DNA of 61,895 nucleotides from the IMG/VR virus record IMGVR_UViG_2523533510_000012. The stretch is one strand, 5' to 3'. This DNA is from a virus (lineage: Duplodnaviria; Heunggongvirae; Uroviricota; Caudoviricetes). Position 1 is the first letter of the stretch. Each line of letters starts with the position of its first letter. This document shows, piece by piece, positions 1 through 3,000 of this stretch. The position numbers are program-made.

Positions 1-3000
1 AGCCCGATTGGCAGTGAGACGTCGGAAACACTGTCCGGGGCATTGCTGAAAAATGCAGCGCCGACCATTCTGCGTCCGTTTGCGAACCTTGCCATGAATG
101 AAAACTTCATGGGGGCGCAGATTTACCAGGAGAACATGCCGTTTGGTACACCAAAACCTGACAGCCAGCTGGGAAGACGTTCAACGCCAGAAGCGTACAA
201 GGCGTTTGCATCCTGGCTGAATGCGTTCTCAGGTGGCAGCCAGTACCGTTCAGGCGCGGTGGATATCACACCGGAATCGCTGAAATACTGGGTGGACTAT
301 ATCTCTGGTGGTACAGGGCGCTTCATTTCCAAAACCACGGATGCGGCGGTGAAATCGCTGAACGGTATTGATATACCGGAACAGCAGGTGCCTTTCCTGG
401 GGAAAATTTCAGGTGAGGTGATGCCGTATGTTGACCAGCAGAAGATGTACGACCGGATGACAGAGGTTGCGCAGTATCACGCAGAGCTGAAGAGTCTGAC
501 CGGCGCAGAAAGAACGGCGTTCATTGACGAGAACAACGGAAAATTGTCGATGAACGGGCTTATGCAGGATACCCGGAAGAGACTGAAGGATTTGCGTAAA
601 CAGCGTGATGCCATTTACGCCGACAGTACTCTCAGTCTGGCGCAACAGTCGGCGATGGTGAAATCGGTAGAGCGGGATATGAAAATTGCCGTGGATCGGT
701 TTAACCGCGAGTACAACAAAAAAGTGGGAGTGGATTAACAGAAATGGCCCCGTACGGAAGTGCGGGGCTAATGTGATTGGGGAGGGTGAGGATACCTGAC
801 ACATCAGAGGTGGCGAGGGATTCCTCCCTTGCAGAGGTCTTTCTTCGTTATCAGTGCCGTCACAATGACGGTAATACAGAGATGAGCAGGGTGATTAACA
901 TCGCCTTTTGCTGCTTTCATTGCATTTCTCCCGCGATAGCTCAGGCGTATTTGTCAATATGCAGAAATATTGATGAACGAATGACGGTAAATACCCTACC
1001 CAGAAAATTAACGTAAATTCACATCGTAAACTTGCGTTAATTATCTGAAATATATACTTAAATCCCCTTAAATCTTTGGGGCGCTATTGGGGCAAAGTGT
1101 GGTTGTTTGGGGCATATTTGGGGCAAAAAAGAACGTATAAAGAACGGTGTAAAATCGATTTCTTTATGGTCAAAATGAGGTCTAACATATTGAAAAGTAT
1201 ATGCTCTTGGACGATCTTCGGTAATTCTGTGTTTTTAATGCTTCATGGTTTCAACATGTCTAAGGATATGGTTTATCATTTTGAAAAATATAATTTTATT
1301 TCATCCTCCTGGTCACTTTGGGGCACGTCTGGGGCACGGGCATTAAGGACATTATTCAACATGGCAACTTGAGTCACGCTGCACTCAGGCATCCATGCAC
1401 CATAAACATTGTAGACCATGCTGGCGCTGGAGTGCCCCATCTGTGATGCAATAAATGTCGGGTTTGCTCCGGCAGATAAAGCCCAGCACGCATAGGTATG
1501 GCGTGACTGATACGCTTTACGGGATCGGATACCCGCTCTTTTTATTGCTGAATCCCATGTCGCTCCGATGGAGCTTACCGCGTAGTTAATACCAGCCTTG
1601 TGATTCTTGCGAACGATTTGCGGACAGAAAACAAAAGTGCACTCGTGCAAAATTGTTCTTCCGTACTCGCGTAATTGAACAGTGATCTGATGCTGCCTGC
1701 TAAGACGAGTAAGCATCGCCTGGTTTTTAAGTGCTTCAATTGCTGGTGCCAGAAGATGTATAACCCGGTTAGTGCCTGCGTCGGTCTTTGGTAGCGTAAA
1801 ATCACCTATTTTTGTAAAATTTCGTCGCACTGTTATCGTGCCAGCTTTCAGGTCGATATCCTCCCATGCAAGTGCGGCAATTTCACCGTGTCGCATCCCT
1901 GTAAAAACAGCCACTGTCCAGAGGTTTTTGGTCTGTTGATGATGGCAGGCATCAATGAGACGGCTAAACTCATCTCTGGTCAGTGGATCCGGCACTGGTT
2001 TTGATTTCCTCAGCGGTGTTATTGAATTAAACGGGTTTTTCTCCAGATACCCGTTTTCGGCGGCAAAGCTGAACATTCCGGCTGTTGTTGTCATGTAATA
2101 GTTCACTGTGGGTACGGTTCTTCCTTTTCGGGACGTGCTGGTTTTCCTGCTTCCCTTTTCCCCGGTCAGTAAATCTTTCCTGATAAACAGCAGATCTTCT
2201 TTTGTAATCGATGACGCCAGCCTGCCAGGACCAAGCCTCGGTAGCATATTTTTCATCACTGATTGATAACGATTTAAGGCGTTACTACTGATTTCCATTG
2301 CTTTCAGAGTAAGCCATTTCTGTGCCAGTTCACCGACGGTGATATCTTTTTTTACCAGGCCAAATAGCTTCAGGTTAGGTGAGTCAGGGAATCGCTCGGC
2401 ATAATCAAACGTTCCCGTTCTGATTGCAAAGCAGACAGAAGCCCTTAACTCACCAGCGATCTTTCTGTTTTTCGGAGTATCGGGCACGCGAAGATTTTCG
2501 CGCACTCGTTTACCCCTGTACTTAAACGTTATTCGGAGTTTTCCTCCGTGATTTTCAACGCCGGCTGGATAGGCTGAATTCGCCATTGTTCCTCCTGCGT
2601 CCAAGAGCACGCTCAGGTTATACTCTTATGGACAAGAATTAAACATCCTGAGATGGTAAGGGTTGGTTTTTGATCCAAGTGTTGATGGTAGGAAGGTGAT
2701 AGAGACATTCGCTGTTTTTCTTTGGCGTTCCGTCGGGGGCGATTTGTTTATATTCTCTGCCGTTCATCCACGCACTGTCCCTGGCGCGTAATATTGTTCC
2801 TTTTCTCAGGCCTGTTACAGCCATTAAAAGCTCCAGTGTTACCCATTCATTCGCATTTATCTGTACAACAGGTGTGATGACTGGCTGAATGCCATGGTTA
2901 TGTTGGTTTACTAACTCGCGCATAAGTTGCCTCTGCATGTGTAAGAAAAAACCGCCCGAAGGCGGTTGTCAGTTGATTGATGTACGGCGCATTTTTCGAA

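Follow-up and report, generated by a model that had tools for sequence, protein, structure and literature searches.

Introduction

In phage lambda, a heterobivalent tyrosine integrase (Int) acts on an attP of ~240–250 bp that has a 7-bp overlap and AT-rich arms. Its N-domain binds repeated sites of ~8–10 bp, unrelated to the core and present on both arms: P1 and P2 at ~−150 to −100, and P'1, P'2 and P'3 at ~+50 to +85. The int-proximal P' copies are arranged in tandem, ~10–11 bp apart, and xis is located upstream of int. Here we describe a similar arrangement in a 61,895-nucleotide stretch of phage DNA (Caudoviricetes; IMG/VR record IMGVR_UViG_2523533510_000012), referred to as the window, in which six TGGGGCA repeats surround the attP core of a Shiga-toxin (Stx) phage and are probably the arm-type sites of its integrase.

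Attachment sites in the Escherichia coli gene wrbA have been annotated for VT2-Sakai (AP000422), Stx2 phage I (AP004402) and a Stx1 phage (AP005153). These phages have the same integrase as the window (98–100% identity), the same 7-bp site and the same repeats. The records mark the core and place a 39–70-bp 'repeat_region, arrangement g/gg, region III' over the P-arm copies. In contrast to the interpretation presented here, the repeat is left unexplained, without a function and without a link to the repeat pair inside int.

A more distant relative is the Rac prophage of E. coli K-12, whose integrase, IntR, belongs to the same family (44% identity to the window Int) and is accompanied by XisR, an excisionase of the DUF1233 family. 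XisR has been demonstrated experimentally to be an excisionase of Rac (PMC4632033). The Rac papers that we consulted do not describe arm sites. Integrases whose arm-binding domain is DUF3596/PF12167 have been classified as the IntBPP-1 subgroup, with the Stx2a phage integrases among the named members; they are still termed 'putative integrases', and the classification is one of proteins, without defined DNA sites (Smyshlyaev et al., 2021; PMC8138268). Literature searches covering the motif, DUF3596 and the arm sites of 933W and of Rac IntR returned no prior description of arm sites for this integrase family.

Results

Six phased repeats on both sides of an AT-rich segment

The elements on which the argument turns are as follows.

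1076–1094, plus strand: P-arm pair 1, TTGGGGCG at 1076 and TTGGGGCA at 1087, putative Int arm-type sites.
1107–1125, plus strand: P-arm pair 2, TTGGGGCA at 1107 and TTGGGGCA at 1118, putative Int arm-type sites.
1248–1254, no strand assigned: crossover (overlap) GTTTCAA, with CATG...CATG core-type half-sites at 1244–1258, from att comparison and GenBank annotation.
1318–1336, plus strand: P'-arm pair, TTGGGGCA at 1318 and CTGGGGCA at 1329, within int, putative Int arm-type sites.
1076–1336, no strand assigned: proposed extent of attP with both arms and the core, 261 bp across the outermost repeats.
1276–2586, minus strand: int, tyrosine integrase of 436 residues with an N-terminal arm-DNA-binding domain and a catalytic domain.
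2639–2938, minus strand: xis, excisionase of the DUF1233 family, 99 residues (PF06806, E = 1.2e-30).

A motif search of the window with YTGGGGCR places all six copies on the plus strand, and the distance from start to start within each of the three pairs is exactly 11 bp. A repeat finder groups the same six copies as three 22-nt units. The segment between the two clusters (1126–1317, 192 bp) has a GC content of 30.7%, compared with 50.1% for the window. The right-hand pair is inside int, at codons 418–423, where it encodes A418-P-D-V-P-Q423 of the 436-residue protein. The preliminary description of this DNA, made by reading the sequence, had reported six (T/C)TGGGGC(A/G) copies as three pairs with 11-bp spacing, an AT-rich stretch of ~190 bp between them and an overlap with the 3' end of int; each of these features was recovered.

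The motif as such is not over-represented: YTGGGGCR occurs 11 times in the whole window versus 10.6 times expected. What is unusual is its distribution, as six of the eleven matches are found within 261 bp on a single strand. In 200 simulated first-order Markov windows, the largest same-strand cluster contained two copies, versus six in the real one. The Poisson probability of a cluster of six, calculated from the background density and corrected for the number of windows, is ~1e-12. A further candidate, an inverted seventh copy at 1432–1439 (GTGCCCCA), was rejected as a coding coincidence, as it encodes the Q-M-G-H box of Int. The codon for its glycine varies in relatives at the position equivalent to GTGCCCCA, being ATGGGCCAT in locus L009 and ATGGGTCAC or ATGGGACAC elsewhere. 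The Q-M-G-H box is universal in tyrosine recombinases.

The crossover site is located between the two clusters

The window belongs to a 933W/phi191-like Stx phage. Positions 700–2700 are 99.8% identical to phage phi191 and 98–100% identical, over shared stretches, to many Stx1- and Stx2-converting phages of the 933W, VT2-Sakai and P13374 types. Many prophage records of these phages start at window position 1244–1248. In AP004402 and AP005153, the annotated 'attachment site' is a 7-bp sequence equivalent to window 1248–1254; in AP000422, in which the VT2-Sakai prophage splits wrbA, the same 7 bp are marked at attL and their first 6 bp at attR.

We mapped the core by comparing attP of the window with attL and attR of VT2-Sakai in wrbA, and with an attB composite assembled from the two host sides:

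attP: ...GCTTCATG GTTTCAA CATGTCTAAGG...
attL: ...GTGCCATC GTTTCAA CATGTCTAAGG...
attR: ...GCTTCATG GTTTCAA TATGTCCGTAC...

The only sequence shared by attP, attL, attR and the reconstructed attB is GTTTCAA. Strand exchange takes place within this 7-bp overlap, because the flanking base on either side switches partner. Of 5426 complete E. coli genomes, 5201 carry the attB composite as one continuous sequence in wrbA, and the best matches are 100% identical.

Comparison with the host attB had been proposed as the means of placing the core relative to the repeats. The crossover falls within the AT-rich segment, separated by 122 bp from the left cluster and by 63 bp from the pair on its right; the alternative, that the core maps elsewhere, does not hold. 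Four copies are thus 123–172 bp to the left of the core, on the P arm, and two are 64–82 bp to the right, on the P' arm. The TGGGGCA motif is unrelated to the core sequence, nnCATG|GTTTCAA|CATGnn. Based on these observations, we assign 1076–1336 as the attP by which this Shiga-toxin phage of the 933W/phi191 type inserts itself into wrbA of E. coli.

An open reading frame of 98 codons (1076–1372, plus strand) runs across the whole attP, and shorter versions are annotated in Stx phage records as hypothetical ORF-43 and B44. It is probably not a real gene, since integration would split it.

The integrase contains an arm-binding domain

Int contains PF12167 (Arm-DNA-bind_2, residues 7–70, E = 8e-26) followed by PF00589 (Phage_integrase, residues 202–395, E = 2e-17) and is identical in sequence to the integrase of phage P13374. 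By the presence of PF12167, it is a member of the IntBPP-1/DUF3596 subgroup. A single-sequence model of residues 10–57 has a three-stranded sheet and a helix; a sequence search of the PDB with Int matched the catalytic domain and nothing else. The subgroup is also characterised by a beta-stranded insertion between strands 2 and 3 of the catalytic domain. Alignment A1 contains an insertion at columns 309–333 that the integrase of Pseudomonas phage JBD68 does not have. Homologues of the neighbouring xis are annotated as excisionase in related records.

In phi191 (L295, NC_028660, 776–2088), the integrase is annotated in two pieces, an integrase and a 'DUF3596 domain-containing protein'. This annotation implies that int of phi191 carries a frameshift; the reading frame in the window is intact.

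The pair is conserved across the integrase family while cores differ

The motif is found on both arms in other lineages that have different cores. SaltyDalty (Int 63% identical) has TGCCCCA-N4-TGCCCCA at the 3' end of int and another such pair 196 bp beyond it; the sequence that separates the two pairs is unrelated. The metagenomic contig L101 (70%) shows the full pattern, at 425, 436, 466 and 477 and then at 675 and 686 at the int end. L246, a Rac-type element with an intact attP, has a two-plus-four layout, and the K-12 Rac prophage carries the motif at attR and attL. PhiR5_1 (66%), the fifth such lineage, has three tandem copies with 11-bp spacing ~130 bp from its attR end. In addition, int of a Stx2 phage located inside another prophage (68%) carries TGTCCCA-N4-TGCCCCA at its 3' end. 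Intact attPs of the five lineages consist of one or two pairs, ~190 bp, and then one pair. The two-pair layout of the window P arm, with spacings of 11, 19–30 and 11, is also found in Rac attR, L101 and L246.

To L246 belongs a side observation. In L244 and L246, a Rac-type int and attP close to enterobacterial ones are located on contigs labelled Streptomyces sp. and Sphingomonas sp. (NPDC assemblies); these contigs are probably contamination. The intact attP of L246 is the excised or phage form.

Two samples were used to extend the comparison. From IMG/VR, 80 loci were picked by Int protein similarity alone, giving 57 distinct 3' tails. The pair is present in every complete tail among them except that of L053, whose second copy lacks one C. 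The 4-nt spacer varies widely across these tails while the 7-mers stay fixed, and with a conserved peptide as the anchor, all 38 distinct tails have the pair at one constant offset. A test of third codon positions on tails selected by the motif was discarded as circular, as the selecting pattern had fixed those positions.

The second sample consisted of 80 GTDB loci, one genome per species, with Int identities of 33–69%, from Enterobacterales, Vibrio, Aeromonas, Halomonas, Pseudomonas, Thiobacillus and Hydrogenophilales. A strict pair was scored on the sense strand within −90/+130 nt of the int end. The TGGGGCA-N4-TGGGGCA pair is present at the int 3' end in 57 loci, compared with a background of two strict pairs in the remaining 638,685 nt, one of which is the P arm of L246. 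The reverse search gives a matching result: starting from nothing but the DNA pattern, it yielded 120 IMG/VR loci, of which 65 have an Int homologue (E <= 1e-5). In nearly all of these 65, the 3' end of the homologue coincides with the pattern. Several of the other retrieved loci resemble P arms at the opposite prophage end and have the same neighbouring repeats.

These data bear on whether the repeats have a function at all. The P-arm copies could have arisen when a 31-bp unit was duplicated by slippage, and the P' copies could simply follow from a conserved Ala-Pro...Pro-Gln tail of Int. The P' pair is indeed coding in the window phage, and the 31-bp unit, which contains a P-arm pair, is duplicated once more in the 933W-like Stx2 phage I, giving three P-arm pairs versus two in the window. 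Because the copy number of the unit varies, the number of arm sites differs among otherwise near-identical Stx phages; the region is annotated in Stx2 phage I merely as 'arrangement gg; region III'. However, in Rac-type elements the int-proximal pair lies downstream of the stop codon and is nonetheless retained, indicating that the constraint acts on DNA and not on the C-terminal peptide of Int. The freedom of the spacer beside invariant 7-mers, the recurrence of the motif across unrelated cores in five lineages and the background of only 2 in 639 kb also argue against this explanation. We therefore consider it very improbable that the repeats are functionless, the least probable of the three alternatives weighed here.

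Another alternative is that the repeats are occupied by a host nucleoid protein, a phage regulator or another such factor, or are a structural element of attP, with no contact to the Int N-domain. The assignment of the binding protein is indirect, and a pair within int might have a role in int expression, both of which leave room for this explanation. Against it, the motif tracks the integrase family over Enterobacterales, Vibrio, Halomonas, Pseudomonas and Betaproteobacteria and not one host, and it bears no resemblance to the consensus of IHF, for which a scan was made, or of Fis. Moreover, an arm-binding domain in the integrase requires arm sites to bind, and YTGGGGCR is the only repeat that a repeat search found on both arms of attP. 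We regard such a factor as an unlikely occupant of the repeats.

Integrase or excisionase

Rac offers the closest comparison for deciding which protein binds. As in the window, four GGGGCAAA-type sites make up two 11-bp pairs, here on attR, and a further pair is found on attL. Beside intR, attL has TGGGGCAAA and GGGGGCAAA, 11 bp apart. On attR, GGTGGCAAA, TGGGGCAAA, AGGGGCAAA and AGGGGCAAA form two 11-bp pairs ~110–155 bp inside the prophage end (1305, 1316, 1335 and 1346 of the K-12 locus, L093). Rac differs from the window in its core, in its target gene (ttcA), in the site variant, (T/A)GGGGCAAA, and in the P' pair, which follows the intR stop codon.

Helically phased direct repeats in attP are the typical targets of directionality factors, and the 11-bp phasing and direct orientation of the repeats are like those of Xis, Cox and TorI arrays. 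The repeats could thus be sites for the DUF1233 excisionase, the recombination directionality factor, and not for Int. A DUF1233-like gene is found beside int in all lineages examined, and Rac XisR binds a fragment from the P-arm side (PMC4632033). In the gel-shift assay of Liu et al. (2015), XisR shifts the 294-bp AttR fragment but not the 291-bp AttM fragment (PMC4632033). We mapped the published primers on K-12: AttM corresponds to L093 1169–1459 and AttR to 1290–1583, and both fragments hold all four Rac P-arm repeats (1305–1354). The repeats are therefore insufficient for XisR binding in that assay, since AttM contains all four and was not shifted. The presence of the motif on both arms is a second point against the excisionase.

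Characterised directionality-factor sites, those of lambda, P2, L5 and KplE1, are on one arm only. Such a location is seen for a different repeat:

1128–1146, plus strand: direct repeat AAAGAACG, two copies 11 bp apart (1128 and 1139), directly inside the P-arm sites, candidate Xis sites.

This repeat is found on the P arm only, and 11-bp-phased AAGTTCG repeats occupy the same position in PhiR5_1 (L091), L146, L204 and SaltyDalty. Located beside the arm sites, the AAAGAACG and AAGTTCG repeats are better candidates for excisionase binding, an assignment that is speculative and drawn from sequence. Taken together, excisionase binding to the TGGGGCA repeats appears improbable, if the strongest of the alternatives.

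We favor the interpretation that the six TGGGGCA repeats are Int arm-type sites, to which we assign a probability of about 0.78. The preliminary description had already read them as integrase arm-type sites around an attP core; the position of the core, the PF12167 domain and the conservation of the motif support that reading, and we infer the contact with Int itself.

Several observations weigh against this interpretation. Literature searches returned no binding or mutational data for the window Int or its close relatives. A DUF1233-like excisionase co-occurs with int in every lineage checked, including the most distant; gene presence or absence therefore cannot separate Int from Xis, and our attempt to tell them apart by lineage gene content failed. 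The strict motif is missing from 23 of the 80 GTDB relatives, some of which have variants such as TTACACC, GGCCCCA and CGCCCCC, and in several Pseudomonas and Kistimonas loci of that sample no motif was seen near int. TGCCCCT is another variant encountered among relatives. Similarly, phage JBD68 (Int 36% identical in alignment A1) has no such pair near int. As the P' pair is coding in the window, the protein could explain part of its conservation among close relatives. Finally, a scan with the IHF consensus gave one near-match (1183–1195, minus strand) versus 0.66 expected, which is not above chance; the composition of the AT-rich segment fits bending, but is unspecific.

Other elements in and around attP

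A further conserved element is found between the P-arm sites and the core:

1203–1226, plus strand: block GCTCTTGGACGATCTTCGGTAATT, 22–45 bp to the left of the core, conserved among attPs with different cores.

The block is nearly invariant across six P arms (alignment A2) and absent from Rac, and could be a site for an accessory protein. In addition, a 23-nt direct repeat with 83% identity (1179–1201, GGTCTAACATATTGAAAAGTATA; 1270–1292, GGTTTATCATTTTGAAAAATATA) brackets the core at approximately −69 and +16. Its left copy overlaps the sole near-consensus IHF site.

Beyond the P arm, on the side away from int and 201–247 bp from the core, a hairpin with a 22-bp stem is located at 1001–1047. 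Folded as int-sense (minus-strand) RNA, it has an energy of −20.7 kcal/mol (z = −4.85 relative to shuffles), and in 933W-like phages one stem pair shows a compensatory change from A-T to G-C. Its placement is like that of lambda sib/tI, an element that controls int mRNA only as long as attP is intact. A promoter and terminator scan of 700–1500 gave nothing beyond shuffled expectation, and an Rfam search of window 1–3200 gave one sub-threshold chance match only.

Between the tail-end genes and attP, a 38-codon open reading frame (804–920, minus strand; MKAAKGDVNHPAHLCITVIVTALITKKDLCKGGIPRHL) is toxin-like and is annotated as Hok/Gef family in phi191. No Sok or hok RNA match to it was found in Rfam.

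In the most distant relatives with the dyad, namely Halomonas, Pseudomonas, Thiobacillus and Hydrogenophilales loci with Int identities of 33–36% (L272, L275, L282, L283, L285 and L287–L292), the sequence downstream of int codes for HTPMMQQY..., which we take to be the start of mutS. As the dyad is directly upstream of this sequence, the arrangement points to a conserved integration site beside mutS in these relatives.

Discussion

The attP described here resembles that of lambda in the type of integrase, the 7-bp overlap, the AT-rich arms, the short repeats on both arms that are unrelated to the core, the tandem int-proximal copies, the location of distal sites at ~−100 to −170, the overall size (261 bp in the window) and the order of xis and int. 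The two differ in several respects. The arm domain of the window Int is PF12167, whereas lambda Int is assigned to a different Pfam arm-binding family. The motif is TGGGGCA in the window and CAGTCACTAT in lambda. All six copies in the window have one orientation, while lambda P2 is inverted, and they are arranged 4+2 as three strict pairs, compared with 2+3. The P' arm of the window is within the int coding sequence, whereas in lambda the end of int roughly coincides with the attP boundary.

By analogy with lambda, a mechanism can be proposed. The PF12167 N-domain of a heterobivalent Int would hold the arm repeats while its C-terminal domains hold the core, and copies spaced by 11 bp would each take one N-domain on the same face of the DNA. 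Accessory proteins would bend the AT-rich DNA between arms and core, so that Int protomers bound at the arms could contact the core sites of both attP and attB, assembling the intasome. The direction of recombination might be set by the use of different subsets of the six sites together with DUF1233 Xis bound elsewhere on the P arm, where its presence would redirect the complex towards excision.

Public annotation already includes the attP core and a P-arm repeat, and the mechanism is the lambda paradigm; the conceptual advance is accordingly small. What is modestly new is that one dyad motif is kept over the DUF3596 subgroup while cores and targets change. The dyad ranges from enterobacterial Stx and Rac phages to mutS-adjacent elements in Pseudomonas, Halomonas and Betaproteobacteria, with Int identities of 33–100%, and it persists while the target is wrbA, ttcA, the site beside mutS or others. 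We think the chances a little better than even that TGGGGCA-N4-TGGGGCA is a family-wide arm-site signature of IntBPP-1 (DUF3596) integrases, with core and target changing freely. If true, this would be unusual, as arm sites are normally thought to diverge with integrase specificity. The dyad would then serve, in many Proteobacteria, as a simple DNA marker for attP and for both ends of prophages with a DUF3596 integrase. On the 933W branch, the P' dyad would have moved into the int reading frame, and binding of Int to its own gene could couple intasome assembly to int expression.

An arm-site motif would also explain the annotated but unexplained 'arrangement g/gg' repeat of variable copy number, and would specify a minimal functional attP for vectors and integration assays. 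Stx phages are the carriers of the Shiga-toxin genes in enterohaemorrhagic E. coli, and the spread and loss of these genes are governed by phage integration and excision.

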